From an uncultured Clostridia bacterium (lineage in GTDB: Bacteria; Bacillota; Clostridia; TANB77; CAG-508), in the NCBI GenBank assembly GCA_934162365.1, contig CAKPIK010000001.1, positions 44,227 through 76,226 on the forward strand: DNA of 32,000 bases. The letters run 5' to 3'. Of the stretch, positions 463 through 24,941 are shown in pieces. Numbering within the stretch: the stretch's first letter is position 1; each line of letters opens with the position of its first letter. Position numbers and translations under genes: made by a program. The notes beneath the pieces are model-generated. The model did no database searches, was not told the DNA's origin, and saw only the letters and a program-made list of their open reading frames with translations.

Positions 463-494
463 AAAAAAATAATCCCATATGGGATTATTTTTTA
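463..494 (-). terminator. Intrinsic (bidirectional-looking) terminator right after the cohesin-like gene
   Basis: Perfect palindrome AAAAAAATAATCCCATATGGGATTATTTTTT. The GC core is CCC/GGG, flanked by an A-run and a T-run. It starts 7 nt past the stop codon at 501-503. Confidence 0.6.
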
Positions 495-500
495 TTATTG

Positions 501-1190
501 TTATATATTTTTATATTTTCTATATGATATATAAGATGCTATTGAAACAGCTCCTAATGCAATTATTGCTATTAACCCTGCATCATTTATACCTGTTTGT
601 GGTAATTTTTTTGTTGAACTATTTTTACTAGTATTGCTAGAAGTATTAGACTTATTACCACTATTACTGGAATTATTATTTCCTGTTGTATTTTTATTGT
701 CATTATTATCAGCAGTTGTATCATCTGCTTTAACAGTAATTGTTACAGAATCATCAGCAATACTAACATTTTCTTGTTCAGAATTTTCATTTACTAAGGC
801 TAATGTTACATTTGATATGTTAATTTGTGTTGTTCCTTCTGCAGCATTATCTAAAACTTTAAATGTTATTGTATATAAAGTTCCTGATTTTGATAAATTT
901 TCATTACTTGATGCTGCTATTGCAATTTCATTACTACCAGACAAATCTGAAAATCCTGTTCCAGCTTGTTTACTTTCTATTTCTAATTTGCTTGTGTCAT
1001 ATTTAAGATTTGCCTTCATTCCTGTTATATTTTCATCTGCTGTTCCTGCAATTGTTATTGTAAATGTTTTTCCTTTTAGAACACTATCAGAACTTGCGCC
1101 AAAAGATATATTCCCTGTTGCTGCATTTACAGTTATAGCCATAGATATAATAAAAATCATTGCTAAAATTGAAATTAAAACTTTTTTCAT
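501..1190 (-). CDS. Secreted cohesin-like domain protein with N/S/T-rich linker and LPQTG cell-wall sorting signal
   Basis: ATG at 1188-1190 follows AGAGAGGT. Signal peptide MKKVLISILAMIFIISMAITVNA. A ~130-aa domain shows a cohesin-like pattern (ITGMKANLKYDTSKLE ... GTLYTITFKVLDNAAEGTTQINISNV). It is followed by a low-complexity N/S/T linker, then LPQTG, a hydrophobic stretch and a RKYK tail. Confidence 0.65.
   Translation of the reverse strand: MKKVLISILAMIFIISMAITVNAATGNISFGASSDSVLKGKTFTITIAGTADENITGMKANLKYDTSKLEIESKQAGTGFSDLSGSNEIAIAASSNENLSKSGTLYTITFKVLDNAAEGTTQINISNVTLALVNENSEQENVSIADDSVTITVKADDTTADNNDNKNTTGNNNSSNSGNKSNTSSNTSKNSSTKKLPQTGINDAGLIAIIALGAVSIASYISYRKYKNI
591..605 (-). other. 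LPQTG sortase recognition motif of the cohesin-like protein
   Basis: The reverse complement of 591-605 is TTACCACAAACAGGT, which reads L-P-Q-T-G. It is followed by INDAGLIAIIALGAVSIASYISY and basic RKYK, the classic tripartite sorting signal. Confidence 0.7.
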
Positions 1191-1217
1191 TTTTTTACCT
1201 CTCTTTTCTTATTTAAT

Positions 1218-1246
1218 AGTATATACATATTGTAAAATAAAATCAA
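1218..1246 (-). promoter_or_regulatory. Candidate sigma-A promoter of the cohesin-like gene
   Basis: The minus strand reads TTGATT-N17-TATACT. It lies downstream of the hairpins that follow the giant gene and about 30 nt upstream of the RBS. Confidence 0.4.
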
Positions 1247-1274
1247 GTTTTTTTAGATTTTTTTTTAGGTATCT

Positions 1275-1325
1275 TTGGGGCAAGTTTTTATGCTTGCCCC
1301 AAGCTAGGGAAATCCAAACCTAGCT
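1275..1325 (-). terminator. Two adjacent GC-rich hairpins downstream of the giant gene (atypical terminator or processing site)
   Basis: Hairpin 1: TTGGGGCAAG (1275-1284) pairs with CTTGCCCCAA (1293-1302). Hairpin 2: AGCTAGG (1302-1308) pairs with CCTAGCT (1319-1325). On the minus-strand RNA there is no U-tract after the second stem, so the terminator call is tentative. Confidence 0.4.
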
Positions 1326-1357
1326 TTATATAATATTTTTATTATATACTTGTGTTA

Positions 1358-4300
1358 TTATAAGTCTTTGATTATACCTAATCTGTAATTATTAATTGCA
1401 ACTATATCAGGTATGAAATCTATTGTTCCATTGTTGTTTATATCTGATGCTAATTTTTGTACAGTAGATAGATTTATTAATCCTAATCTGTAATTATTTG
1501 CCATAATTACGTCTTCTAAGAATGTTACTTTACCATCTCCATTAATATCACCATTAACTACAACAACATATTGTGTTTCTCCGTTTAGTATTATTTCTGA
1601 ACCAGTTCTTATCTTGCCATCTTCTGTTAAGTTTTTGTATTCTGGTACATTGTTTTCTAAGGCTTCTTTATTCATTTTTCCATTTATGCTTTCTAAATTC
1701 ATATTGCCTGAAACCTTAACATATTTTTTACCTTTTACTTGAATTGTTGGTAAGTCTTCAAATATTATCTCTGAAGTTGTTGCTTTTTTAACTACATTAA
1801 ATTCAAGTTTTTGAACTTCACTTGTATTTCCAGATTTATCTGTTGCTTTTGCATATAAAATATGTTTTCCAATACTATTTGATGTCTTAGATGCATTTTG
1901 GCTTCTTACATAGTCTGTTGTTGCTACCCAGTCTTCATTGTCCCATTTATATTCTATTTTTGCATCTTCATCTGTTAATATAGTAGCTCCTAGTGGTTCA
2001 TTAACTGTTACTGTTGTTAAAGTATATCTAAACATAACTGTTGGAGCAGTTGTATCTTTTTCTTCTATATTTGTTACACTTGCTGTAGCTTTTCCAGCAT
2101 TGCCTGCCTTATCTTTAAATTCAAATGTAAATTCTCCATTTTCAGTAAATTTATAAGTATCATTTCCTGAATTATTTGTAATTATTACATCTTCTTCGTT
2201 AAAGCTAATTTTTGCAGTTATACTTCCATCTTCATTTGTTGTATAATCTATTGTTGCTTCTGGTGCAACTTTATCTATGTTTGTTATTTCTAATGTTTTA
2301 TATACTTTATTTCCAGCTAAATCTGTAGCTTCGGCATATACTGTTCCATTTTCAGAAATAATAACTTTTGTTACATCTGCTGATGAAGTTTTACCACTTA
2401 CTCCAGCTTTTCTATTTTCTGTTAAGTTTGTTCCATAAGCTACATTTACTATAACATCTTGATTTGTTAATTCTGTTGTGCTTGCCGTTAAAGTTATCTC
2501 ATCTTTTGTTACTTTAAATCCATTTGTTCTTGCTTCTAAAACATTTCCAGCTAAATCTGTAGCTCTTAAGTATAAATAGTATGTGTTTTCTTCGCCAACT
2601 TCTGTTTTTATTGTTATATCACTATTTACAGTTAATCCACTAATATCTGCTTGGTTCCAACCTGTTTCTGGTAAAGTTTCAGAAGTTGACCAAATATATT
2701 CGAATTTTGATAATTCTTCATTAATTACTATATTTTCAACTAAAGTTGATTTATTGCTGTCAGTAGCAATTACATAATTTCCACCATTTACTTTTGCTCT
2801 TATAATAGGTTTTGTACAATCTATAAATACTTTATTATATGTAACTTTTTCTTTATTTTCATTACCTGCTAAATCCTCACAAACTCCTGAAGAAATTTTT
2901 ATAACTTGCATACCCTCTGCAATTCTATCTACTTTTAATGTATAAACTTTTCCATCTGTATTTGGAACTACTTTGAATTCACCCTTTAATCCATTAGTTA
3001 TTTCTATATCATTTGCTGTAAATCCAGTTACTGTTTCACTCCATGTAAATGTATATGTTACTGTATCTTTATTTGTTCTTTCTACATCTGATGTAATTGT
3101 AACTGTTGGGGCTATTGTATCTGCTATTGCTTCTCCATCTACTTGTATATTACTAAAGTTAAATATGTTCTTTTGATTTCCATATTTATCTTGTACATAT
3201 CCATAGGTTTTATCTGTTAAGCTTTCATCTTCTAAAGTATTTCCTTGTACATCTAATATTGTAAAGTTTCCATTATCTCCATCTTTAACTGTATAATTGA
3301 ATATTACTTCTTTTTTGTTATCATTATTTATTGTTCCAGTAATTTCTTGCTCTTGTCCTTCACCTATTTTAATTTTAATTTTCATGTTTTGATTTGCGAT
3401 ATCTTCGTCAAATACTGCTACTGCTTTAATATTTATATCTTTCTTGCAATATACTCCTTGTGTTGAATCTGAAGTTATATATAATTCTTTTAATTCTGGA
3501 GCTGTTGTATCTGTTGTTTCTTGATAGTATTCATTTCCTGCTCTATCACATAAGTTTCCTTTTGCTAATTCATAGTGTAAAGTTCCATTATCTTTTACTG
3601 GATCTTTTGTAATAACATATGTTATTACTGCTCCTGATACATCTGAAGCTGAAATTTCATTATTAGCTCCCGTTCCAAAACTGTATATTAATTTTGGAGC
3701 ATTTGCAGGTGATAATGATACTCTTGTTTTATCATTCAAATCATATACATCTTCACTGAATGTTGCTTTAACTGTTATTGTTTGATTTGCTTGGTTAAGT
3801 TCTGTATCTTTTAATAATGTTATTGTTGGGTTTATTGTATCTGCATATAAGTTTAATTTAGTAGCTTCTTTTGCAATATTTCCATTTCCAGCTGCATCAG
3901 CAAACTGATCTTCTGGAACTTTTACCCATAAATAGCCATTGTCTCCATCTTTAATCTTATAAGTATATTCAACAGTTGTACTATCTGCATTCCAATTGCT
4001 CTCATAACTATCTTCATTATAATTTGTTGGCTCTTCTGTATCACTTTCTGAAAATCCTACTAAGATTTTTGGGTATATTTTAGCTGAGCTTACTTTCTCG
4101 CTAAATGTTAATGTTATTTTTATATCATTTTCTGCTTTATAATATGGATTTGTATTTTGTACATTTGGATTTTCTACAGTTGCTGTTATATTTGTAACAT
4201 TAGGTCTTATTGTATCTGCAATTATTTTGTTGCCAGTTTGATTAACTGTAAGTATAGCTTTATTTCCAGCTAAATCACATACAAATACATTTTCTTTATT

Positions 4301-6988
4301 TTCATATTTTGTGATTTTAACTTCTCCATTATCTCCTGCATATGTTACAACATCTTCTTCGTTCTTTTCTTCTCCTCTTATTGTGTATGTATATATAAGT
4401 TTTGATTCATCTACTTTTCCATCTGTTGTTCCATATCCTACGAAAATTGCTTCTACTTCATTTGCATTTCCAACACTAACTTTTAATGTTGGTGCACTAG
4501 ACTCAGTTATTTTCTTAATCTCATTATTTTCTAATGCATATACTTTTTCATCATATTTTGCTTCTATTGTTACTATTGTTCCTGCTTTATATGATCCTTC
4601 GCTTGGAGATGTGATATTAAGTTCTTGTAATCTTGGAGCTACTGTATCTGCTATTATTGTGTCTCCATCTAATGTTCTTTTAGCTACTCTTGTAATATTT
4701 CCAGCTTCATCTATTACTGTTCCACTAAATCCTTTTACAGATAAAGTTCCTTCATCTCCACTTGTAATAGTATATGTATATGTTATTTTATTTCCTTCTA
4801 AAGTACCTGTTACTTCTCCTTTAGCATCTCCACTTTCACTAAATTGTAATGTAAGTTTTGGAAGTCCTGTAACATCTTCTTCTAATGATGCAATCTTCTC
4901 ATCAAATGTTGCAACTACAGTTATTGTTTCCCCTATTCTATAATTTTCTTTTACATTACTTATTTCGCTATTCAATACTATTTCTGATGTTGAATAAGCT
5001 TCTAAGCTTAATAATAATGGAGCTTTTTTATCTACTCTTATTATTTTTTCTGTTCTTACATTGCTATGTCCAACTAAATCTTGGCAAGCATCTTGTTCTA
5101 TTATAACTTGTAAATCTCCAACATTTCCATTTGTTACATTAGGAGTGATAATCATTTTATATGAGTATGTTCCATCTTCATTTTCTATAACATCAGATAA
5201 TGTTCCTTTAGTTCCATTATTTACTGTTATTTTATCTGCTGTAAATCCTTCAACTTTTTCAGAGAATGTGAAAATATATTCTATTTCATCTTTATTAGTT
5301 ATAGATTTTACATCCTTTGTATCAATTGTAATCATTGGTGCTGTTGTATCTGCATAAATACTTTCAATTTCTTTCTTTTCTAGTTTAGTTAAATCTGTTT
5401 GATTATTTGCTAAATCTGTTAAACTTCCTGATACAAATTCTATATTTAATTTTCCTTCATCTCCTGGATTTATAATATATGAATATGTCCAAGTTGTTTC
5501 TCCATTTTCGTCAATTACAGCATCTATATGTTTTGCATTTCCTAATGTTGTATTTTCTTGATAATTATATTTTCCTAGTCCACTTTCACTAAAACTTACT
5601 CTTACTTCTGGTGCCATATTAGCTTGAACTTTTTCTGTTGTTTTTACTGTTATTATTATTTCTTTTCCTTCAGGATATCTTTTTGATTCTGTTGCATCTT
5701 CTAAATATGCATTTATATCTACTGAAGGTTTCTTTGTATCAACCTTAATATCTACATTTCCAAAAGATTTACTTGAATTTGAACCTTTTAATTCATTTGC
5801 AGTATCAAAGTTATTTTCTCTTACATCATAATAAACAAATAAGTGTTCATCATTTAAATTTTTTCTAAAATTAATTGTTACATTATTTGATGTAAATTCA
5901 GTATCTGTTTGTTCAACAGTTGCTTCATATACTAAAAAGGTTTTTGGTGTTTTTGTTCCATCTCCATTATCAATTTCTTCTTGAGTAGCACTTACTGGTT
6001 TGAATACTAAACTTCCTAATGAAAGTTTTGGATATATTTCTTCTGCTGCTTTACTTGTTACATTTCCTTCTTCATCTTTTACATCAGCAAGTTTAATTTT
6101 GTTTCCATTTTCTAATCCAGTATATATATATTTATCTATTGATATTTCAAATTTAACTTTATCATTTTCTTGTAAGTATACTGTATTTAAGAAATCTGTT
6201 ATTTCTTTGTAATCTTCTTCACCATGTTTAACATATATTGTTGGATCTAAATTTATAGTATCTGTATTATTTGTTATTTCTACTTTACTTATTTCTTTTG
6301 CTTCGCTTTTTTCAATTCCATTATTTGCATTTTTTCCTGCAATTAGTCCAACGTATTTATTAGCATCTGTTCCTTCTTCTACGTTTGATAATCCTAATGG
6401 CATTTTATTAGCATTGCAATCTTTTATCTTTCCATTATTAACACCAGCGATATTTCCTATATTAAAATAATCGTTGTTAGTTGATACTTTTGCAATTTTT
6501 GAATTATTAACAGTTAATTTTTCAATGTTACCATTTGAAACACCAAATAATCCAATATTTCCATTAGACTCTTTTGTAAGTGTATATGTTAGATTTGTAA
6601 CCGTATATCCATTTCCTTTAAATGTTCCTTGGAACGGTGTATATTCTGTTCCTATTGGAGTCCAATCTACATTACTATTAATCTTTATATCATTTATTAA
6701 TTCAATAACTTTGCCATAGCATGAATTTCCTGCATTTACGTATTCAGCTAAAGCTCTTAATTGAATTTCGTTAACTATATATAATGTAGTTTTTGATTTA
6801 AAGTGCTCTTCTATTTTTCTTACTGCACTTCCAACCTCACCATACATTAATATTTCTAAAGCAGTACTAGCTTGTAAGGTTAAACCTTCTACCGCATATG
6901 TAAAGCTTGATGAAATAAAAATTAAGCTTAATGCAATTAAAACTCCTTTCATTAAAATTGCTTGCATCTTTTTTGTTTTGGATTTCAT
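1358..6988 (-). CDS. Giant secreted surface protein: GLUG/beta-helix-like N-terminal module, about 12 tandem Ig-like modules, C-terminal dockerin
   Basis: I place the start at ATG 6986-6988 (MKSKTKKMQAILMKGVLIALSLIFISSSFTYA signal peptide, AAGAGG RBS). The track start at 7120 lies inside the upstream terminator. N-terminal module motifs: FQGTFKGNGYTVTNL, NIGLFGVSNGNIEKL, IGNIAGVNNGKIKDC. Module boundaries recur as ADT(T/I/V)AP. D-x-AGN motifs are present and a dockerin closes the protein. Confidence 0.8.
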   Translation of the reverse strand: MKSKTKKMQAILMKGVLIALSLIFISSSFTYAVEGLTLQASTALEILMYGEVGSAVRKIEEHFKSKTTLYIVNEIQLRALAEYVNAGNSCYGKVIELINDIKINSNVDWTPIGTEYTPFQGTFKGNGYTVTNLTYTLTKESNGNIGLFGVSNGNIEKLTVNNSKIAKVSTNNDYFNIGNIAGVNNGKIKDCNANKMPLGLSNVEEGTDANKYVGLIAGKNANNGIEKSEAKEISKVEITNNTDTINLDPTIYVKHGEEDYKEITDFLNTVYLQENDKVKFEISIDKYIYTGLENGNKIKLADVKDEEGNVTSKAAEEIYPKLSLGSLVFKPVSATQEEIDNGDGTKTPKTFLVYEATVEQTDTEFTSNNVTINFRKNLNDEHLFVYYDVRENNFDTANELKGSNSSKSFGNVDIKVDTKKPSVDINAYLEDATESKRYPEGKEIIITVKTTEKVQANMAPEVRVSFSESGLGKYNYQENTTLGNAKHIDAVIDENGETTWTYSYIINPGDEGKLNIEFVSGSLTDLANNQTDLTKLEKKEIESIYADTTAPMITIDTKDVKSITNKDEIEYIFTFSEKVEGFTADKITVNNGTKGTLSDVIENEDGTYSYKMIITPNVTNGNVGDLQVIIEQDACQDLVGHSNVRTEKIIRVDKKAPLLLSLEAYSTSEIVLNSEISNVKENYRIGETITVVATFDEKIASLEEDVTGLPKLTLQFSESGDAKGEVTGTLEGNKITYTYTITSGDEGTLSVKGFSGTVIDEAGNITRVAKRTLDGDTIIADTVAPRLQELNITSPSEGSYKAGTIVTIEAKYDEKVYALENNEIKKITESSAPTLKVSVGNANEVEAIFVGYGTTDGKVDESKLIYTYTIRGEEKNEEDVVTYAGDNGEVKITKYENKENVFVCDLAGNKAILTVNQTGNKIIADTIRPNVTNITATVENPNVQNTNPYYKAENDIKITLTFSEKVSSAKIYPKILVGFSESDTEEPTNYNEDSYESNWNADSTTVEYTYKIKDGDNGYLWVKVPEDQFADAAGNGNIAKEATKLNLYADTINPTITLLKDTELNQANQTITVKATFSEDVYDLNDKTRVSLSPANAPKLIYSFGTGANNEISASDVSGAVITYVITKDPVKDNGTLHYELAKGNLCDRAGNEYYQETTDTTAPELKELYITSDSTQGVYCKKDINIKAVAVFDEDIANQNMKIKIKIGEGQEQEITGTINNDNKKEVIFNYTVKDGDNGNFTILDVQGNTLEDESLTDKTYGYVQDKYGNQKNIFNFSNIQVDGEAIADTIAPTVTITSDVERTNKDTVTYTFTWSETVTGFTANDIEITNGLKGEFKVVPNTDGKVYTLKVDRIAEGMQVIKISSGVCEDLAGNENKEKVTYNKVFIDCTKPIIRAKVNGGNYVIATDSNKSTLVENIVINEELSKFEYIWSTSETLPETGWNQADISGLTVNSDITIKTEVGEENTYYLYLRATDLAGNVLEARTNGFKVTKDEITLTASTTELTNQDVIVNVAYGTNLTENRKAGVSGKTSSADVTKVIISENGTVYAEATDLAGNKVYKTLEITNIDKVAPEATIDYTTNEDGSITAKISFNEEDVIITNNSGNDTYKFTENGEFTFEFKDKAGNAGKATASVTNIEEKDTTAPTVMFRYTLTTVTVNEPLGATILTDEDAKIEYKWDNEDWVATTDYVRSQNASKTSNSIGKHILYAKATDKSGNTSEVQKLEFNVVKKATTSEIIFEDLPTIQVKGKKYVKVSGNMNLESINGKMNKEALENNVPEYKNLTEDGKIRTGSEIILNGETQYVVVVNGDINGDGKVTFLEDVIMANNYRLGLINLSTVQKLASDINNNGTIDFIPDIVAINNYRLGIIKDL
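1361..1558 (-). other. Dockerin module (two Ca-binding loop-helix repeats)
   Basis: C-terminal 66 aa: VNGDINGDGKVTFLEDVIMANNYRLGLI ... ASDINNNGTIDFIPDIVAINNYRLGII. Both halves have the D-x-N-x-(D/N)-G-x-(V/I)-x-x-x-D spacing of dockerin F-hand loops. Confidence 0.7.
1787..5743 (-). repeat. Protein-level tandem array of divergent Ig-like modules inside the giant gene
   Basis: Boundary motifs, by ORF-track residue number: VDTKKPS(460), YADTTAP(589), VDKKAPL(696), IADTVAP(823), IADTIRP(967), YADTINP(1092), TTDTTAP(1202), IADTIAP(1332), IDCTKPI(1433), IDKVAPE(1615), KDTTAPT(1688). Spacing is about 75-145 aa. Confidence 0.6.
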
Positions 6989-7046
6989 AATAAGATACCT
7001 CTTTCTTTCGATTTTCATTCGAATAAATTTTATTATACTTAATTTT

Positions 7047-7074
7047 ATTATAAATTCTTTTACAAAAAAATCAA
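7047..7074 (-). promoter_or_regulatory. Candidate sigma-A promoter of the giant surface-protein gene
   Basis: The minus strand reads TTGATT-N16-TATAAT. It lies between the upstream terminator (7106-7154) and the ATG at 6988. Confidence 0.35.
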
Positions 7075-7105
7075 TACTGAAAATTTTGGTAATTTTTATT
7101 ATTAC

Positions 7106-7154
7106 AAAAAAAATCGACAAAACTTTTTACGGAAATAGTTTTATCGATTTTTTT
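7106..7154 (-). terminator. Intrinsic terminator after the AI-2E transporter gene
   Basis: The minus-strand RNA pairs UCGAUAAAACU with AGUUUUGUCGA (11 bp including one G-U), with a 12-nt loop. A run of 8 U follows. Confidence 0.65.
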
Positions 7155-7226
7155 AAACTTAAATATTAAATTTGTATTACATTTATGTAATAATATTTTA
7201 TTTATCATTTTTAGTATACATAATTT

Positions 7227-8354
7227 CTATATTGTATACTTTCTTTTTTCTTGTTTATATTCTAAATAATCATTTATTATTAATTTTAGCATTGCAATTA
7301 CAGGTACAGCTAAGAACATTCCTAATACTCCAAAGTAAGCTCCTGCAAAGGTTACAGAGAAGATTACTAATATTGGGCTTATTTTAAGTTTGTCTCCTAA
7401 TATCTTAGGATTAATAATATTTGCATCTATTTGTTGTAATATTATAACTACTATTGCAAGCCATATAGCTTTGCTAATTCCACCTGTACATATTGTTATA
7501 AATATTGCAATCGCAACGGCTACAATGGCTCCAAAGAATGGTATTAAGTTAAATAATCCAATCATAAATCCTAAAAGTGCTGCATACTTAACTTTCATTA
7601 TTGCCATTGCTATCGTTGTAATAACCCCAACTATAACTGCATCTATAATTTGTCCTGATATAAAGTTAAAGAATATTTCATTTGTTCTCTTAAAGTATTT
7701 TGAAACAACTTTATATTTGTCTTCTTTAAATAAAGCTAATCCAACTCTTTTTAAAAAGCCTAATATCTTTTCTCTTTCTGCTAGAGTATATATAGATATT
7801 ATTAAAGTTACAAAAACATCAAATATACCAGATGCTACGCTTATTGCTCCTTTTATATAGCTTGTTATACTTTCTATGCTTAAATATTTAGCTAAATCAA
7901 TACTTGAAATTTGATTTATAATTTCTTGCAGATTTAGCTTCTGCAAAGTTGCATCTTCTGGAAGACTATTAACAAAATTCGTAAGTCCTGAATAATAGCC
8001 AGGTAAATTGTTTAATAGATCTCCAACACTCACAATTATTGGTGGCAATATAACATTTATTAATATAAACAAAATAATTGCCAAAATTAAATAACATGTA
8101 AATATTGATAAAGTTCTTGATTTCTTCTTTAATATTTTAAGCTTTGTGTTCTTAAAGCATTCTTCTATCTTTTTACATGGAATATATAATATATATGCAA
8201 TTAAAATTCCCATTATAAATGGCATTAATATTCCTATTAAATTCGATAAAAATTCTCCTATTGCAGTAAAATTATCTAAGAATTTATAAATTACTATTAC
8301 TGCCACAGCTAAAGAAAACCAGTATAACCATTTTTTTATATTGTTACTTTTCAT
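7227..8354 (-). CDS. AI-2E family (PerM/UPF0118) membrane transporter
   Basis: Polytopic membrane protein with family-typical C-terminal segments (LIPFFGAIVAVAIAIFI, NIINPKILGDKLKISPILVIFSVTFAGAYFGVLGMFLAVPV). I chose the start at ATG 8352-8354 (MKSNNIKK) because AGGAG precedes it and the xth stop is at 8365. Confidence 0.8.
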   Translation of the reverse strand: MKSNNIKKWLYWFSLAVAVIVIYKFLDNFTAIGEFLSNLIGILMPFIMGILIAYILYIPCKKIEECFKNTKLKILKKKSRTLSIFTCYLILAIILFILINVILPPIIVSVGDLLNNLPGYYSGLTNFVNSLPEDATLQKLNLQEIINQISSIDLAKYLSIESITSYIKGAISVASGIFDVFVTLIISIYTLAEREKILGFLKRVGLALFKEDKYKVVSKYFKRTNEIFFNFISGQIIDAVIVGVITTIAMAIMKVKYAALLGFMIGLFNLIPFFGAIVAVAIAIFITICTGGISKAIWLAIVVIILQQIDANIINPKILGDKLKISPILVIFSVTFAGAYFGVLGMFLAVPVIAMLKLIINDYLEYKQEKRKYTI

Positions 8355-8364
8355 ATTTTTCTCC

Positions 8365-9121
8365 TTATAATTTAATCTCAAGTTCTATTGGGCAGTGGTC
8401 ACTCCCCATAATTTCAGAATGAATTTTGCTATCTATTATTTGGTCCTTAATACTTTTTGATACTATAAAATAATCTATTCTCCAACCAATGTTTTTAGCT
8501 CTAGAATTTGCCATATAAGACCACCATGTATAAGCATTTTCTTTATCAGGATATAAGTATCTAAATGTATCAATAAAATTTTCTTTTAATAACTCTGTCA
8601 TTTTACTTCTCTCTTCATCTGTGAAGCCTGCATTTCCGTCTATTAGTTTTTGGATTTTTTAAATCAATTTCTTCATGTGCAACATTTAAATCTCCGCACA
8701 AAATAACAGGTTTTATTTTATTTAATTTATTTAAATATTCTCTAAAATCATCTTCCCAAACTTGTCTATATTGTAGTCTTTCAAGTTCTCTTTTAGAATT
8801 AGGAGTATAGCAATTCACCATATAAAACTCTTTAAATTCTAATGTTATTACTCTTCCTTCTTTATCATGTTCTTCAATTCCAATGCCATATTTTTCTGAT
8901 ATTGGCTTTTCTTTTGTTAAGATTAATGTGCCAGAATATCCTTTCTTTTCTGCACAATTCCAATATTCATAATAACCAGGAAAATCAAAGGTTGCTTGCT
9001 CCTTTTGCATTTTAGTTTCTTGCAAACAAAAAATATCTGCTTGTATTTTATTAAAGAAGTCTAAAAAGCCTTTATTGAGTACAGCTCTTAGACCATTTAC
9101 ATTCCATGAAACAATTTTCAT
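8365..9121 (-). pseudogene. xth: Exodeoxyribonuclease III (ExoA/Xth family) interrupted by a +1 frameshift
   Basis: Fragment 8615-9121 reads [13 protein letters not shown]...CLQETK...[26 protein letters not shown]. The +1 frame continues ...[17 protein letters not shown]...GSDHCPIELEIKL (the 8365-8601 ORF). The junction is within CGGAAA (8633-8638). Removing one nt restores KNPKTNR(R/G)NAGFTDEER. Confidence 0.8.
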
Positions 9122-9143
9122 TAGCTACCTCCAATATGTTTTT

Positions 9144-9172
9144 ATTATACTATACATTAATTATTTTAGCAA
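9144..9172 (-). promoter_or_regulatory. Candidate sigma-A promoter of xth / AI-2E transporter operon
   Basis: The minus strand reads TTGCTA-N17-TATAAT. It is followed by a GGAGG RBS and the ATG at 9121. Confidence 0.45.
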
Positions 9173-9190
9173 ATAAAAAACAAAAGGAAA

Positions 9191-9222
9191 TAAAGAAAAA
9201 TTCCTAGATAAACTAGGAATTT
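9191..9222 (-). terminator. Intrinsic terminator after the yabE-like gene
   Basis: AAATTCCTAG (9198-9207) pairs with CTAGGAATTT (9213-9222) around a 5-nt loop. On the minus strand the stem is followed by TTTTTCTTTATTT. Confidence 0.6.
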
Positions 9223-9229
9223 TAAATAT

Positions 9230-10252
9230 TTATTTTACATATATATAACATTCAACATTTTTTCTACCAAATTTTATACATTCATTATATGTATCCATAT
9301 ATATATCTAATTTGTTATTTGAGATTGCTCCACCTCTATCTTGAACTACAAACCATCCACCATTTGGTTTGTTTTTCATTGATGGTATATATATTACTGT
9401 TCCAATAGGATAACCTTTACCAGCAGCTACTGTATACCAAGATGTAGCTTTTGCACCTGATGCAGTTTTTCCATAGCCTTTACTTGCTGGGCTTTTTCCA
9501 CATGTAGACGCTGTATATGCTGATGTATTTAGAGTTTTTATAATTGGCGTTATTCCTTCAACTTTTTTAGCCAATGCATTACTATTTGCAGCAGCACTTG
9601 CTATTGATGTAGAAGCAGTTCTTGAATTTTCTTCTCCATCTCTTGAAGTTGTTTTTGTTACTTGTACTATTTTATTAACAGCTTTTTTTATAATTTCTTC
9701 TTTAACAACTGTTCTTGATATTTCTATATCATTTTGATATTTTACTTTATAAGTTACTTTTTTTAATCCATCTTTTCCTTGTTGTAAAACTTTATTTGTT
9801 CTATCTTCTGAACTTACTGAAGAAGCATTTTTAGTTATTGTTTCGTATGGAATTACTTCCTCTTTAGTCTCTATTTTTTCTATTATACTAGTATAATTTC
9901 CTAAAACTTGTTCTAAAGATACTGTATCACTGCTATTGGCAATTTCTACTGTTTCTCCTTCTTCTGAACCAGTTTTAGTTATTTTTATTGTTTTACTATC
10001 TCCCAATTGAGCATCTTTTGATGGAAATACTGTCTCATCTGATAAAACAACTATATGATTTTCTTCTAATATTTCTGATATTTTCTTTTTTGTAGTTATT
10101 ACATTCATTTCATAATTATTGGCCAAAACAATTTTTACAGAATCTACATCTGTATTAAAAGCTCTTACTGCTATACTACATGTAAACATTAATATTAAAG
10201 CAACTATTGTTATTTTTAATATTTGCAAAGAAGCTTTTTCATTACTTTTCAT
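9230..10252 (-). CDS. yabE: DUF348-G5-3D domain cell-wall protein (YabE / RpfB-like architecture)
   Basis: N-terminal TM anchor. DUF348-like segment VKIVLANNYEMNVITTKKKISEILEENHIVV. G5-like segment VIPYETITKNASSVSSEDRTNKVLQQGKDGLKKVTYKVKYQNDIEISRTVV. C-terminal 3D domain GTVIYIPS...WFVVQDRGGAISNNKLDIYMDTYNECIKFG. Confidence 0.75.
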   Translation of the reverse strand: MKSNEKASLQILKITIVALILMFTCSIAVRAFNTDVDSVKIVLANNYEMNVITTKKKISEILEENHIVVLSDETVFPSKDAQLGDSKTIKITKTGSEEGETVEIANSSDTVSLEQVLGNYTSIIEKIETKEEVIPYETITKNASSVSSEDRTNKVLQQGKDGLKKVTYKVKYQNDIEISRTVVKEEIIKKAVNKIVQVTKTTSRDGEENSRTASTSIASAAANSNALAKKVEGITPIIKTLNTSAYTASTCGKSPASKGYGKTASGAKATSWYTVAAGKGYPIGTVIYIPSMKNKPNGGWFVVQDRGGAISNNKLDIYMDTYNECIKFGRKNVECYIYVK

Positions 10253-10283
10253 ATGTTTTAACCTCCTATAAACTACAAGTGAA

Positions 10284-10312
10284 ATTATAACATTAATCTA
10301 AAAAAAAGTCAA
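10284..10312 (-). promoter_or_regulatory. Near-consensus sigma-A promoter of the yabE-like gene
   Basis: The minus strand reads TTGACT-N17-TATAAT. It lies about 30 nt upstream of the GGAGG RBS and the ATG at 10252. Confidence 0.5.
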
Positions 10313-10358
10313 TTTTTTATTGCATATTATATTATATTCTTTTGTACAAGTTTTATTA

Positions 10359-11234
10359 CTATTTTATATTTCTTAATGCTTCGATTCTATCCTCTATTGC
10401 TGGGTGAGTAGAAAACAAGCTTGTTTTCTTATCTCTAAATGGATTACATATATACATATTTTCTGTTGCTTTATTTGCAGTTTCAAGTTCATTTGGGTCA
10501 CTTGATATTTTTATTAAAGCTGATATTAATCCATCTGGATTTCTTGTAAACTGCACTGCCGTAGCATCTGCTAAGTATTCTCTTCTTCTAGAGACAGCAA
10601 GTTGCAATAATTTAGAAAATATAGGAGCAATTATTAAACATATTAAACCTATAAGCATTAATATTGAGTTTCCTTTATTATTATCACTGTCTCTATCTTT
10701 GTAAAAAAATGTTCTTGTAAACATATCAGATAGCATAACAATAAGCCCTACCATTACAGTAACAACTGCTGAAAGTCTAATGTCATAATTTGCTATGTGG
10801 CTTAACTCATGTGCTAAAACTCCTTCTAATTCATAATAATCTAATTTTTCTAATAATGAAGAAGTAACACAAATAACAGAGTGTTCTGGATCTCTTCCTG
10901 TTGCAAATGCATTTGGTTGGTTATCATCAACAACATATAATTTAGGTCTATATTCAAGTCCAGAACTAATCATTAATGCATCTAATATGTTATTTAATTT
11001 CTTAAACTCTTCTTCTGTTGCTGGTCTTGCTTTGCTAACAGATAAAATTATTTTATCGCAATTATGATACGAAAGATATGCAGACAATATAGAAAAAGCC
11101 AAAGCTATAATTATAGACATATATCCCAAATCAAAGGCATTGCATATATAATAAACTATTAGCGTAATTATAACTATAAAACCACTTACTATTAACCCAG
11201 TTTTCATTTTATTATTTTTTATATTTTCAATCAT
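10359..11234 (-). CDS. htpX: M48 family zinc metalloprotease, HtpX-like
   Basis: HELSHIANYD (HExxH) sits between TM segments, and a downstream E (REYLAD) is present. I placed the start at ATG 11232-11234 (MIENIKNN), preceded by AGAGGTG. The track start at 11270 lies inside the upstream hairpin. Confidence 0.8.
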   Translation of the reverse strand: MIENIKNNKMKTGLIVSGFIVIITLIVYYICNAFDLGYMSIIIALAFSILSAYLSYHNCDKIILSVSKARPATEEEFKKLNNILDALMISSGLEYRPKLYVVDDNQPNAFATGRDPEHSVICVTSSLLEKLDYYELEGVLAHELSHIANYDIRLSAVVTVMVGLIVMLSDMFTRTFFYKDRDSDNNKGNSILMLIGLICLIIAPIFSKLLQLAVSRRREYLADATAVQFTRNPDGLISALIKISSDPNELETANKATENMYICNPFRDKKTSLFSTHPAIEDRIEALRNIK

Positions 11235-11247
11235 TTTTTTCACCTCT

Positions 11248-11281
11248 AAAAAAGGAAAGAAATCAAACAATTTCTTTCCCC
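11248..11281 (-). terminator. Strong hairpin plus U6 between lemA and htpX
   Basis: The minus strand reads GGGGAAAGAAAT-TGTTTG-ATTTCTTTCC-TTTTTT (10-bp perfect stem). The htpX RBS follows immediately. Confidence 0.55.
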
Positions 11282-11293
11282 TTTATTGAATTT

Positions 11294-11845
11294 TTATTTA
11301 TTAAAATCAACTTTTACATTCTTTTTTGCTTCTTCACTTTCAGCTGCAAATAATGGTTCAGCTGTAAAATGGAACATATTAGCAATTATATTGCTAGGGA
11401 ACAATTCTAACTTAGTATTATACATTGTAACACTATCATTATAAAATTGTCTTGAGAATGATATTTTGTTTTCTGTATTACGTAGTTCTTCTTGTAAATC
11501 TAAAAAGTTTTGATTTGCTTTTAATTCTGGATAACTTTCAGAAACAGCCATAATAGTTTTTAAGGTACCAGACAATTGATTGTTTAATTCTGCTTTTTCA
11601 TCTACTGTTGTAGCATTTGCCCAAGAAGTTCTTAAAGCAGCTATTTTTTCAAAAGTTTCTTTTTCATGGTTCATATAGCCTTTTACTGTTTCTACAAAAT
11701 TTGGTATTAAATCAAATCTTCTTTGTAATTGTACATCTATTTGACTCCAAGCATTTTTAACTTTTTGTCTAGAAGCTACTAAACCATTGTATGTAGCAAT
11801 TATAAATAATACAACTACAATTAATATAGCTAATGCAATCCACAT
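11294..11845 (-). CDS. lemA: LemA family protein
   Basis: N-terminal TM helix, then [33 protein letters not shown], which is the typical LemA core. A GGAGGA RBS is present. Confidence 0.8.
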
Positions 11846-13093: not shown

Positions 13094-14323
13094 TTATTTA
13101 AAGAATAACCAACTTGCTAAATTTCCCATTCCAAGTGCTAAGCAAGCAAGCATTATCCAAATTAATATTCTATTTATCTTTTTATTTTTTTCAATATTTA
13201 ATTTCTTATAATAAATATCATATTTCTTTTTTACATCATTAAAAATTTCTTCTAAATTTAATTTTTCTTTACATCTTTTATATATTTTTTCTCCTAAAGA
13301 GTCAGTAGTTACCTCACTTATCCATATATTATTTGTAAAGTTTATGAATTTATCTATTGCCTCATTAGGATTTTTATTAAAATTATTACCTAATTTTTTT
13401 AAATAATATCTTTGGTGTAGAGCAATTATATAAGTGTAAAAATATTTACTCTCATACTCTTGATAAAATTTTGTGTAATTTTCTGTATCAGTTGATGAGC
13501 ATATTGCAGCCACACATTTGTTATTTATTCTTATTTTTCTAAAACTTGAATTTGCAATTACTGATAGTTTATCATAGTCAACATTTATATTAATATCACT
13601 TGGTTTTAATTCTGCAAGTTTAACAAACTCATTTTCTATACTTTCAAAATCATCATCTTTATTCCAATAATTAGAATCTATACATGCATATGTATAAATT
13701 AAGAATAAATCATCATCTATATCTAATTTTCGGCTTTCAATTTTTTGTCCTGTAATATCTGAAATAATTTCAGATATTTTACTCATATTGTTAAACATAC
13801 TTGTTTGAATTTTAATTGTATCTAATTTTCTAATATTCTTATTTTCAAGATTTATATTTTCAAACTTATAATTGAAATTTAAGATGTCAGAAAACTTATC
13901 TGTTTCTACCAAATGTGTTTTTATACTTAAAAAACATATACCAGTATTAAAGCAAATCAATTCAATTTTAGGAATGTTAAAAAATATTCCATCTTTTTCA
14001 TCAATTTTACCTTGCATTTGTTCTTCTAATACATATTCAAATATTAAGCAATTTTGCTTGCTTAATAAATTTACTTTTTGTCTCATGCTTAATTTGTTAA
14101 TACTATTTATTTTATCATTGCTAAAAGAAAAATCTTGAAACAATTTTTCTTTTATTGTTGGTACAAAATATTTATATAGTTCAACATCTTTAAATGCATC
14201 AAAGAACTTAATTTTGCATTTTTTACTTTTTATTAAATTAGTTACATATCTTTTGTATTCTCCTTCTTTAATCGCAAAAGGATAAATAAAATATGTGTAT
14301 TGATAATTTGTCTTAAGTTCCAT
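13094..14323 (-). CDS. Hypothetical protein, about 380-aa soluble domain with one C-terminal TM helix (tail-anchored); no family recognised
   Basis: GAGGGAG RBS. It is tightly packed with its neighbours (14 nt after the upstream stop, 10 nt before acpS). Coding-like composition. The C-terminus is RILIWIMLACLALGMGNLASWLFFK. Confidence 0.6.
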   Translation of the reverse strand: MELKTNYQYTYFIYPFAIKEGEYKRYVTNLIKSKKCKIKFFDAFKDVELYKYFVPTIKEKLFQDFSFSNDKINSINKLSMRQKVNLLSKQNCLIFEYVLEEQMQGKIDEKDGIFFNIPKIELICFNTGICFLSIKTHLVETDKFSDILNFNYKFENINLENKNIRKLDTIKIQTSMFNNMSKISEIISDITGQKIESRKLDIDDDLFLIYTYACIDSNYWNKDDDFESIENEFVKLAELKPSDININVDYDKLSVIANSSFRKIRINNKCVAAICSSTDTENYTKFYQEYESKYFYTYIIALHQRYYLKKLGNNFNKNPNEAIDKFINFTNNIWISEVTTDSLGEKIYKRCKEKLNLEEIFNDVKKKYDIYYKKLNIEKNKKINRILIWIMLACLALGMGNLASWLFFK

Positions 14324-14337
14324 TAAATCTCCCTCTA

Positions 14338-15831
14338 TTATTTATCTGTATAAAACATTAAATTAAGGTCTTCTCCTAAGTGATATTCTCCAATAAAATC
14401 TATTAATAAGTTTTCATCTAAATTATATTTAGGTTCGCAAATGATATTTCCTTTTTTATCTAAGCTTCCCCACAATCCATTTTTCTTAACTGCTATATAT
14501 CCAAAATTATTTTGACCTCTAGCATCATCATAAATATAATCAACTACAACTTTTCCATCTTTATCTACAAAACCATATTTACCATTTTGTTTGCTTAGGA
14601 ACAAGTTGTTTTGAGTTAAGATTTCACTTTCTTTTTTTTCATCACCATTTAGTTTATAATATTTATACCCTTCTTCTGTCCAAACCTTTATATATGATTT
14701 ATCATAATTTGTATCATTAACTATTCCTATTGCTATTTCTTTTAAGCTTTTATCTAATATAGTATTTAGATCCTCATTGTTTTCTAATTCATATATATTT
14801 ACATCTTCATAATAATTTATTTTAGCATATTTTGCTTCTAATTTTATTTCTCCATCTATATCTATGATTCCATAATTGTTATCTATTTTAGCAATAAACA
14901 TGTTGTCGCTTGTATATCTTAATTCTTTATATGCTTTGTTAATTTTCTTTTCTGCATTATAGTTGTAAGCTAAGAATTCATTTTTATATTTATATACAAT
15001 TATTCCATCTTTTATATCTTCAATGTTATCAAATTTTTCATTTAAAACTTGTTTTTCTTCTGCATTTATTACTTTATATTTTCCATTTTCTTTTACACAG
15101 AATGCATCTTTGTTGTCAATTATTTTAATGTCTTGGTATTTGCAATCTAATATCTCATTTACACCATATTTGCCATCTTTTTTTACTACATATGTTTTGC
15201 TGTTATCCCCAAGATATTTAATTTCTTCAAATTCATTATTTATTATCTTTTTTCCTGAATCATTTACTAATCCAAGTTGTTTATCCTTAACTGTTACTAT
15301 GCTATTCTTAGCTCCTTTTAAGGCATATATATCATCGTATTCTGCAGCTAAAATAACTTCTCCATTAAAATTAATTAAACCATATTTGCCATCTTTTTGA
15401 ATTAAAAGAACATTTTCTTCATACCACAAATTTTTATTTTCATCATAATTTTCTAAAGCTTTTATATTTTCAAAATCAGTTAAAATTTCTTTTCCTTTTG
15501 AATTTAATACTTTTGTTTTATATGTGTTATTATCATAGTCGACATCATAATTAATTATAAATACATCTTTTTTATTATCCGGAATTATAATTGTTTCATC
15601 ATATATTGGCTCAATTATAACTTTTGAGTTATTATCAATAACTCCCCATTTATCATCTTTATTTATTAAAAAATAACTTGCACTAACCAACTTACTTGAT
15701 GAAGAATCTGAATTAAGTAAATTTTTAATTGCAATTACAAACATCACAATAACTGCAATTGCAATAATAACTGCGATTACCTTTTTTATATTTAACTTTG
15801 GTTCATTATTATATCTTCTACCTCTACTCAT
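14338..15831 (-). CDS. Membrane-anchored WG (KWG-type) repeat protein
   Basis: Start at ATG 15829-15831. The TTG at 15843 used by the track is actually part of the GGAGGA RBS. N-terminal TM helix. At least 6 repeats of the form (D/N)GKYG(L/V/F)(I/V)(N/D)xxG.(V/I)...YD.I and NGLWGSLDKKG. Confidence 0.75.
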   Translation of the reverse strand: MSRGRRYNNEPKLNIKKVIAVIIAIAVIVMFVIAIKNLLNSDSSSSKLVSASYFLINKDDKWGVIDNNSKVIIEPIYDETIIIPDNKKDVFIINYDVDYDNNTYKTKVLNSKGKEILTDFENIKALENYDENKNLWYEENVLLIQKDGKYGLINFNGEVILAAEYDDIYALKGAKNSIVTVKDKQLGLVNDSGKKIINNEFEEIKYLGDNSKTYVVKKDGKYGVNEILDCKYQDIKIIDNKDAFCVKENGKYKVINAEEKQVLNEKFDNIEDIKDGIIVYKYKNEFLAYNYNAEKKINKAYKELRYTSDNMFIAKIDNNYGIIDIDGEIKLEAKYAKINYYEDVNIYELENNEDLNTILDKSLKEIAIGIVNDTNYDKSYIKVWTEEGYKYYKLNGDEKKESEILTQNNLFLSKQNGKYGFVDKDGKVVVDYIYDDARGQNNFGYIAVKKNGLWGSLDKKGNIICEPKYNLDENLLIDFIGEYHLGEDLNLMFYTDK

Positions 15832-15861
15832 AAATTCCTCCAAATATTTTATTCCATTAAT

Positions 15862-24587: not shown

Positions 24588-24941
24588 CTAAAGTTCAATT
24601 TCTACTTCGTTAATCCTTTTATTATCAATCAACTTAAGCATTTTCTCTTCTTTAATTTCACCATTTAGTAAAAAACTTTGCACTTTATTTGTTTTATTCT
24701 TATTTTTTATTTTTATATTATATATACTTTCTTTATATTTATACTGAATAAAATACTCTTCCCACTCAAATGGAATACATGGTTTTATTGTCAAATTTTC
24801 ATTATTAATTTTTAACCCTAATATATATTCTATTCCAGCATCATAATACCAACTTGAAGAACCCGTATACCAACTCCATCCACCTCTTCCGAAGCAAACT
24901 TTCACTGCCATATATATCTGCTGGTATAACATATGGTTCAA
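24588..24941 (-). pseudogene. cgs: C-terminal fragment (GH94 tail) of the cyclic glucan synthase-like gene, in a shifted frame
   Basis: From about 24890 downstream, this frame reads GRGGWSWYTGSSSWYYDAGIEYILGLKINNENLTIKPCIP.... That is the conserved GH94 segment expected directly after ...EPYVIPADIYGSESLL of the main ORF. Confidence 0.7.

Follow-up and report, generated by a model that had tools for sequence, protein, structure and literature searches.

Cohesins that are fixed to the cell wall by a sortase signal and hold a dockerin-bearing protein at the cell surface have been described before, and these systems provide the frame in which we analyze here a pair of adjacent genes in a 32,000-nucleotide stretch of contig CAKPIK010000001.1 from an uncultured Clostridia bacterium (below, the window means this whole stretch). 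One gene encodes a secreted protein of 1876 amino acids (aa), hereinafter the giant, which ends in an X-dockerin, that is, an X module directly followed by a dockerin; the other encodes a 229-aa protein, hereinafter the anchor, with a single cohesin and a C-terminal sorting signal. ScaE of Ruminococcus flavefaciens similarly combines a single cohesin with a C-terminal LPXTG motif and holds the cellulose-binding protein CttA via the C-terminal X-dockerin of the latter, in addition to binding the dockerin of ScaB (PMC2930009, PMC4266597). In the amylosome of the human-gut Firmicute R. bromii, the 534-aa protein Sca2, with one cohesin and a sortase signal, binds the dockerins of amylases, a peptidase and a leucine-rich repeat (LRR) protein, and has been proposed to be a general cell-surface anchor (PMC4611034). 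Moreover, cohesins and dockerins outside cellulosomes have long been catalogued (Peer et al., 2009, as cited in PMC2930009). With regard to the pair in the window, we consider it likely that it represents a non-cellulosomal cohesin-dockerin surface display system of an uncultured low-GC (26-28%) gut Clostridium.

The pair shows the ScaE-type anchoring architecture, with a single cohesin and a sortase signal on one side and an X-dockerin cargo on the other; the load path from the wall through cohesin and X-dockerin to an N-terminal binding domain would be that of CttA-ScaE, and in both cases the cargo is non-enzymatic (PMC4266597, PMC2930009). In contrast, the genes for CttA and ScaE are part of a cellulosome cluster that also encodes enzyme-carrying scaffoldins, and CttA attaches to cellulose by means of carbohydrate-binding modules (CBMs). 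Within the reach of a local survey, neither the window nor any of 25 related loci contains a scaffoldin, a CBM or a dockerin-bearing enzyme, and the cargo in the window is a 1876-aa GLUG/Ig protein with dockerin loops of 13 residues. Furthermore, the top 50 structural matches of the window cohesin in Foldseek do not include ScaE. The main cargo of Sca2 consists of GH13 amylases, whereas no amylase or other carbohydrate-active enzyme (CAZyme) cargo was seen in the loci surveyed here; the conserved adjacency of anchor and giant and the matched type swaps described below are recorded for the lineage of the window. By Foldseek, the closest folds to the anchor cohesin are those of non-cellulosomal cohesins of Clostridium perfringens (2jh2, 2w1n, 2vo8, 2o4e), a low-GC Clostridium in which such pairs, found in glycoside hydrolases and toxins, are likewise used outside cellulose degradation; C. 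perfringens and Archaeoglobus are the sources of the solved non-cellulosomal cohesins among the PDB matches. The C. perfringens cohesins and dockerins are reported by Adams et al. (2008) to lie inside large secreted enzymes and to join enzymes together, whereas the cohesin in the window is a stand-alone wall anchor and its cargo is devoid of a catalytic domain. Finally, the LPXTG fibrillar adhesins of Gram-positive bacteria resemble the giant in that a tip domain sits on a stalk built of Ig-like repeats whose number varies, but they carry their own LPXTG signal and are attached covalently, whereas here the signal resides on a separate small protein and the joint would be non-covalent. Judged from these comparisons, the anchoring logic is not new, CttA-ScaE and Sca2 being direct precedents; an earlier reading of this DNA, made from the letters without database searches (the sequence-only reading), had called such a use of the pair poorly described, which is at odds with the studied CttA-ScaE adhesion complex (PMC4266597, PMC2930009) and with Sca2 (PMC4611034). 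What differs is the CAZyme-free context in the surveyed loci, the giant GLUG/Ig cargo encoded beside the anchor, the dockerin variant with 13-residue loops and the matched polymorphism of the two binding modules; no paper combining dockerin, cohesin and GLUG was found in the literature collection searched.

The identity of the two modules is supported by both sequence and structure comparisons. The anchor matches Pfam Cohesin (PF00963) over residues 38-151 with 47.9 bits (cutoff 24.1; E = 2.1e-12), and its AlphaFold2 (AF2) model, built with 19 homologues as input, is a beta-sandwich with a predicted local distance difference test (pLDDT) score above 90 over residues ~26-154, followed by a disordered stalk (161-204) and a terminal helix (205-227). 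When this model was compared with PDB in Foldseek, all 22 top matches were cohesins, the best being 2jh2 (E = 9e-9, target-normalised TM 0.75), in agreement with the nine-stranded beta-sandwich (jelly-roll) fold of cohesins. A sequence profile of the domain found no significant match in PDB (best E = 0.56); thus, given the fold match, the anchor carries a divergent but genuine cohesin. The sorting signal consists, in this order, of LPQTG, the hydrophobic segment INDAGLIAIIALGAVSIASYISY and the positively charged tail RKYKNI, scores 20.6 bits against TIGR01167 (LPXTG anchor; cutoff 15.9) and 17.3 bits against Pfam Gram_pos_anchor, under the cutoff of 20, and includes L196-P197-Q198-T199-G200, which is invariant or nearly so across 19 aligned homologues. 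The anchor has 249 homologues; all of the 120 listed are 225-270 aa long, and 119 of these match PF00963. In one relative (L002, cohesin gene 10001..10705), IAQTG takes the place of LPQTG, and this sorting signal may be degenerate or differently processed. As for the giant, Dockerin_1 (PF00404) scores 20.6 bits in the whole protein (cutoff 22.9) and 27.5 bits on the isolated last 81 aa, and phmmer retrieved the PDB dockerins 4uyq_B (8e-5), 2ccl_B (3e-4) and 1ohz_B (1e-3). Its two segments have D/N at loop positions 1, 3 and 5, and alignment with the PDB dockerins reveals one extra residue per calcium loop, such that DINGDGKVTFLED and DINNNGTIDFIPD comprise 13 residues before the closing Asp, compared with the canonical 12. 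The X module and the dockerin are kept together at the C terminus of hundreds of proteins and in all loci. On the make-up of the anchor (signal peptide, cohesin-like domain, N/S/T-rich stalk and LPQTG) and the two-repeat dockerin of the giant, the sequence-only reading was thus correct, with Pfam, TIGR01167 and AF2 in agreement on the former; the cohesin profile and fold matches that it had proposed as a check were both obtained.

The pairing of these modules is conserved. The pair was identified in 25 loci (L001-L019 and L023-L026, L020-L022 being other genes) from metagenome-assembled genomes in GTDB (uncultured Clostridia and Clostridiaceae; Hadza human gut, rabbit) and from ENA, JGI and Logan metagenomes. 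It occupies the same syntenic slot in all 25, in the order AI-2E transporter, giant with terminal X-dockerin, cohesin-LPXTG gene, with the last directly 3' of the giant gene at a distance of 111-186 nt; rnc comes next wherever the contig reaches, except in L003, and sometimes after an extra small open reading frame (ORF). In some relatives (L011-L014, ~10864..11318), an ORF of 129-150 aa without a counterpart in the window separates the cohesin gene from rnc; it has no confident Pfam match, with one weak match to HmpF in L013. The giants, 1591-2965 aa long where the gene is complete, differ strongly among loci in head and repeat number.

Furthermore, cohesin and dockerin have diverged in a matched fashion. 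The proteins of the window and of its closest relative, L004, are 96% identical in the AI-2E transporter, 93% in RNase III, ~87-96% in the Ig-repeat body of the giant and 98% in the signal peptide and sorting signal of the anchor, the first 26 residues of which (signal peptide and ATG) are the same; the corresponding values are 51% for the cohesin domain and 49% for the dockerin. The DNA between the two variable cassettes (1351..1053, ~300 bp), which spans the intergenic region, the anchor signal peptide and the first cohesin strands, is 90-100% identical to that of L004, and the intergenic region itself is 93-100% identical although both flanking modules have diverged. The dockerin loops are 12 residues long in four loci (type B), all with a PIDGMYTKF-type cohesin, and 13 residues long in all 16 other typed loci (type A), L014 and L023-L025 having been left out of the typing. 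A second case is L026, which resembles L013 (96% identity in the signal peptide, 92% in the anchor, 81% in the giant body and 79% in the X module) but shares only 50% with it in the cohesin domain and 51% in the dockerin, against 62-65% and 70%, respectively, with type B (L004/L011); its DNA is a two-patch mosaic like that of the window versus L004. Thus, twice and in independent backgrounds, divergence is confined to the dockerin and the cohesin core (40-77% DNA identity), with 83-100% identity in the ~300 bp that separate them. Across a set of 13 loci distinct in the cohesin domain or the dockerin, of which three are nearly identical, the distances of cohesin domains and dockerins are correlated (Mantel r = 0.90, permutation p = 1e-4; partial r = 0.91 when controlling for rnc, i.e., RNase III). 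This matched divergence is the strongest computational indication that the two modules bind each other: we read dockerin and cohesin as matched specificity cassettes, and the dockerin of the giant and the adjacent LPXTG-anchored cohesin are very probably a cognate pair. There are probably at least two matched socket/plug specificity types that are exchanged together between closely related strains, and the two types are predicted not to cross-bind. We tentatively extend this to a lock-and-key polymorphism, in which at least two non-cross-binding types among near-identical strains would be swapped as matched cassettes and all X-dockerin cargo would follow the type of the anchor; we regard this extension as possible rather than probable.

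Under the display scenario, the 229-aa protein would be secreted, cleaved at LPQTG by a presumed sortase and covalently linked to peptidoglycan, exposing one cohesin on a flexible stalk of ~40 residues. The giant would be secreted separately and bind this cohesin non-covalently through its C-terminal X-dockerin, with calcium held in the two EF-hand-like loops. The resulting fibre, 12 Ig-like modules topped by a GLUG-like head, would be held off the wall, and the head would likely be the ligand-binding tip. Other X-dockerin proteins, such as those of the BspA-type LRR family, would probably be held by the same cohesin.

Orthologues of the giant share its MKSK motif as their start, the exact 1876-aa protein is on record, and the start codon is preceded, at a distance of 8 nt, by an AAGAGG ribosome-binding site. 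The predicted signal peptide begins with a K-rich stretch, continues with a hydrophobic core and ends at an AxA-like cleavage site. In the body of the protein, Pfam Big_12 scores 72.6 bits and iterated hmmsearch delineates eight such domains (E from 1e-23 to 5e-34), followed by modules of two other kinds, with residues 1396-1496 pairing with 1645-1735 and 1525-1572 with 1597-1642; the latter modules give sub-threshold scores with Big_13 (26.4 bits, cutoff 27), Y_Y_Y (24.6, cutoff 26.6) and an OmpL47-type barrel (26.5, cutoff 40). Hence the eight Big_12-like and four other modules add up to 12, as the sequence-only reading had approximately counted; the same reading saw a GLUG/beta-helix-like head. 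The sole significant Foldseek match of the head, from a model that is confident only for residues ~43-197, is 3n6z (E = 2.5e-4, 140 columns), a GLUG-type protein of B. ovatus; comparison of the head with PDB by sequence yielded nothing significant. Pfam Glug (PF07581) stays below threshold on the giant (E = 0.24) and gives faint matches in the orthologues of L011 and L015, whereas it is carried by the distant homologues P0130 and P0131. The distal head region (231-416) is 71-73% identical to that of the closest relative, versus ~90% for the body of the giant. In L001 and L006 (giant gene 1963..9840) the head is wholly different and contains an N-terminal pair of dockerin-like EF-hands (GDVDNNGKINEYD... 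ADINGDGLINNVD; hmmsearch independent E = 0.001) in addition to the C-terminal dockerin.

The architecture of the giant suggests that it is an adhesin, and an adhesin-like trait is the variability of head and repeat number, seen even where the cohesin is the same: L011 and L012 share one 242-aa cohesin protein, whereas their giants, of 2318 and 1946 aa, have different heads. One of these heads is window-like and the other a long GLUG beta-helix, that is, there is strain-level mosaicism of the displayed protein. Such wholesale head swaps would also fit immune or phage evasion, and the giant might be anchored without being an adhesin, serving as a protective or spacing fibre, as a decoy or variable antigen, or as carrier of an unrecognised enzyme in the head. 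We consider this unlikely, even though 3n6z, the only significant fold match of the head, was deposited as a 'putative immunoglobulin A1 protease' (IgA1 protease), GLUG domains occur in IgA1-protease-type proteins, and residues 231-416 of the head have no recognisable fold. Neither Pfam nor NCBIfam detects a peptidase or other catalytic domain in the giant, and a tip domain on an Ig-like stalk is the usual architecture of fibrillar adhesins.

A further question is whether the anchor serves only its neighbour, as implied by the 'minimal', 'dedicated' two-gene device of the sequence-only reading. The two genes are indeed adjacent in every locus, and hmmsearch of six-frame translations detects only a single cohesin and a single dockerin-type module in the window, as in each of the loci. 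However, the X-dockerin is not confined to giants. A word-indexed protein collection, in which giants are poorly represented, gave 5 matches for the X-dockerin and 6 for the head and was replaced by an exhaustive search of representatives; with the 140-aa X-dockerin as query, this recovered 830 protein clusters, including 33 with E <= 1e-30. Most of the top matches are to the C-terminal ends of giants with 1.6-4.4 thousand residues, but the same family also ends complete signal-peptide proteins of the BspA-type LRR kind (P0166, P0174, P0185, P0201, P0203, P0209), the papain-family protease P0190 and shorter GLUG/Ig proteins. Ten shorter relatives that were scanned have LRR_5, Peptidase_C1 or Big_12 domains, and none has a glycoside hydrolase (GH) domain or CBM. 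Moreover, assembly ERZ27279231, the source of the type-B locus L011, has a 210-kb contig of matching GC content that encodes P0166, a 753-aa BspA-type LRR protein. The dockerin of P0166 shares 82% identity with that of the L011 giant and 50% with that of the window, and the GatB encoded beside P0166 is 90% identical to that of L001, which places this contig in the same lineage. At least one sister strain thus has a predicted second cargo of the matching dockerin type. Given these X-dockerin proteins and P0166 in the assembly of L011, the cohesin is probably a general docking site, also for proteins such as those of the BspA-type LRR family, and probably does not serve the giant exclusively. 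Sca2 of R. bromii, too, has cargo of more than one kind (PMC4611034). We therefore consider a strictly dedicated device to be improbable. Of the original interpretation, what stands is a giant surface protein probably held by a sortase-anchored cohesin, supported by the adjacency and the matched divergence; its dedication and novelty were overstated. BspA-type LRR proteins with a C-terminal module of this X-dockerin family are encoded at unrelated chromosomal sites (L020, 10001..12262; L021, 10001..11638), one after mfd and a SpoU methylase gene and the other between murC and spoVG.

Several observations weigh against the display scenario. No sortase gene is present in the 32-kb window or within 10 kb of any locus, and the survey of the genomic surroundings for cohesins and dockerins, that of the window strain included, covered the window and up to 10 kb around the loci. 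The AF2 model of the head is poor (mean pLDDT 51.6, with values of 63-91 only for residues ~43-197), and no ligand is indicated for the putative adhesin. As to the correlation of cohesin and dockerin distances, its p-value overstates independence because many loci are closely related. In addition, the diverged patches are only ~300 bp apart, so that linked recombination without selection for fit is conceivable; given the two independent occurrences, linked recombination alone is unlikely. In principle, the two modules might not be partners at all: the dockerin would bind another cohesin or a non-cohesin ligand, the cohesin would take other proteins, and their adjacency would merely be an inherited gene order. 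Outside cellulosomes, dockerins and cohesins that have no assigned partner are frequent (Peer et al., 2009, as cited in PMC2930009), and the restricted range of the survey leaves room for other partners. Nevertheless, the joint change of type across DNA that is otherwise preserved, in two backgrounds, and the partial correlation make this explanation very improbable. A conventional cellulosome component is rejected for the window and the 25 loci, given the lack of scaffoldins, CBMs and dockerin-bearing enzymes there.

The coordinates of the features of the pair are collected in Table 1. Both genes are on the minus strand in a region of 25-30% GC. The intergenic region has a folded RNA (z = -4.7), and an intrinsic terminator between the two genes was rejected since the hairpins lack a U tract; co-transcription and separate transcription are both possible in this arrangement. 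The sequence-only reading had assigned the cohesin gene its own promoter, and a candidate is present (TTGATT-17-TATACT), but such matches occur in the window at chance frequency (50 versus 47.3 expected in shuffled sequence); separate transcription of the cohesin gene is plausible. Cyclic di-GMP (c-di-GMP) riboswitches precede some clostridial adhesin genes; a riboswitch of this or another kind 5' of the giant gene was rejected, as no family passes the Rfam gathering thresholds anywhere in the window.

Table 1. Features of the anchor and giant genes, with positions in the window
Feature	Position	Strand	Basis or remark
Terminator-like hairpin, two-way, 3' of cohesin gene	464..493	.	sequence scan
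Cohesin anchor gene, 229 aa	501..1190	-	ORF, domain matches, AF2 model
Cell-wall sorting signal (LPQTG, hydrophobic helix, RKYKNI tail), residues 196-229	504..605	-	TIGR01167
N/S/T-rich disordered stalk, residues 156-195	606..725	-	pLDDT <50; length differs among orthologues
Cohesin domain, residues 26-155	726..1115	-	Pfam Cohesin, AF2, Foldseek
Variable cassette 2, cohesin core (residues ~47-146)	753..1052	-	40-68% DNA identity to L004 (flanks 83-100%)
Anchor signal peptide, residues 1-23, ...VNA/A	1122..1190	-	read from sequence; AF2 helix at residues 3-17
Intergenic region: three hairpins without U tract, TTGATT-17-TATACT (1246..1218), GAGAGG ribosome-binding site	1191..1357	-	
Variable cassette 1, X module and dockerin	1352..1830	-	52-77% DNA identity to L004 (flanks 87-97%)
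Giant secreted protein gene, 1876 aa; ATG at 6988, stop 1358-1360	1358..6988	-	ORF; orthologue starts
Dockerin, residues 1810-1876, two similar repeats (DINGDGKVTFLED..., DINNNGTIDFIPD...)	1361..1561	-	Pfam, PDB matches
X module, 73 aa, residues 1737-1809, directly N-terminal to dockerin	1562..1780	-	conservation
Four more Ig-like modules, two kinds, residues 1390-1735	1784..2821	-	iterated hmmsearch
Eight Big_12-like Ig modules, residues 417-1389, each opening with D-T/K-x-x-P	2822..5740	-	Pfam, iterated hmmsearch
Distal head region, residues 231-416	5741..6298	-	no Pfam match, low-confidence model
GLUG-like beta-helix head, residues ~43-230	6299..6862	-	AF2, Foldseek
Giant signal peptide, residues 1-32, ...FTYA/VEG	6893..6988	-	read by eye from sequence
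Promoter-like TTGATT-16-TATAAT upstream of giant gene, behind AI-2E transporter terminator hairpin	7047..7074	-	consensus match only

The pair is surrounded by housekeeping genes: downstream lies the gene for RNase III, and upstream are those for the AI-2E transporter, a split exonuclease III, a G5/3D protein, an M48 peptidase, LemA, TatD and SpoIIE, along with a two-component system. Two ORFs, of 168 and 78 aa, make up the exonuclease III gene (xth; 8365..9121, minus strand); it is broken in the same way in independent assemblies of relatives (L004, L011-L013 and L023), and the 78-aa part is also seen in L024 and L025, whereas xth is intact (251 aa) in the relatives L003, L007, L014 and L018. 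The split thus looks like a real, inherited frameshift or division of the gene rather than a sequencing error. Two adjacent ORFs (13094..15843, minus strand) encode a 409-aa protein without a Pfam match and a 501-aa protein with WG-containing beta repeats. The region 24588..31698 of the minus strand contains a 2285-aa ORF of the GH94 family (24841..31698) with GH94 supersandwich, GH94 catalytic and glycoamylase domains, which resembles cyclic beta-1,2-glucan synthase, lacks a dockerin and is non-cellulosomal. A 117-aa ORF that overlaps its end bears the final 29 positions of the GH94 catalytic domain, which indicates a frameshift near the 3' end of the gene. Because of this ORF, the statement that the window has no glycoside hydrolase, CBM or multi-cohesin scaffoldin survives only for the latter two.

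Taken together, these observations point to the use of the cellulosome anchoring principle outside plant-fibre digestion. Of the non-cellulosomal cohesin-dockerin pairs recorded over the years, only a few have been assigned a role, and the system described here provides a clean natural example, in which large surface proteins would sit on a replaceable, non-covalent joint instead of a wall anchor of their own. The type A and type B cassettes are natural variants that differ mainly in the binding modules; they could reveal the determinants of cohesin-dockerin specificity and may yield new non-cross-binding pairs for protein engineering. If the lock-and-key polymorphism holds, it would allow a strain to reserve its secreted surface proteins for itself or to escape phages or antibodies aimed at the anchor joint, and would amount to diversifying co-evolution within a cohesin-dockerin pair, in loci that show no sign of cellulose or starch degradation. 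This lineage of uncultured gut Clostridia is present in many human and animal metagenomes (the anchor of one relative was found on 136 contigs, and a near-identical anchor variant of the cluster of the window strain on 115), and the giants, together with the associated BspA-type LRR proteins, are candidate colonisation factors of an unstudied gut organism.

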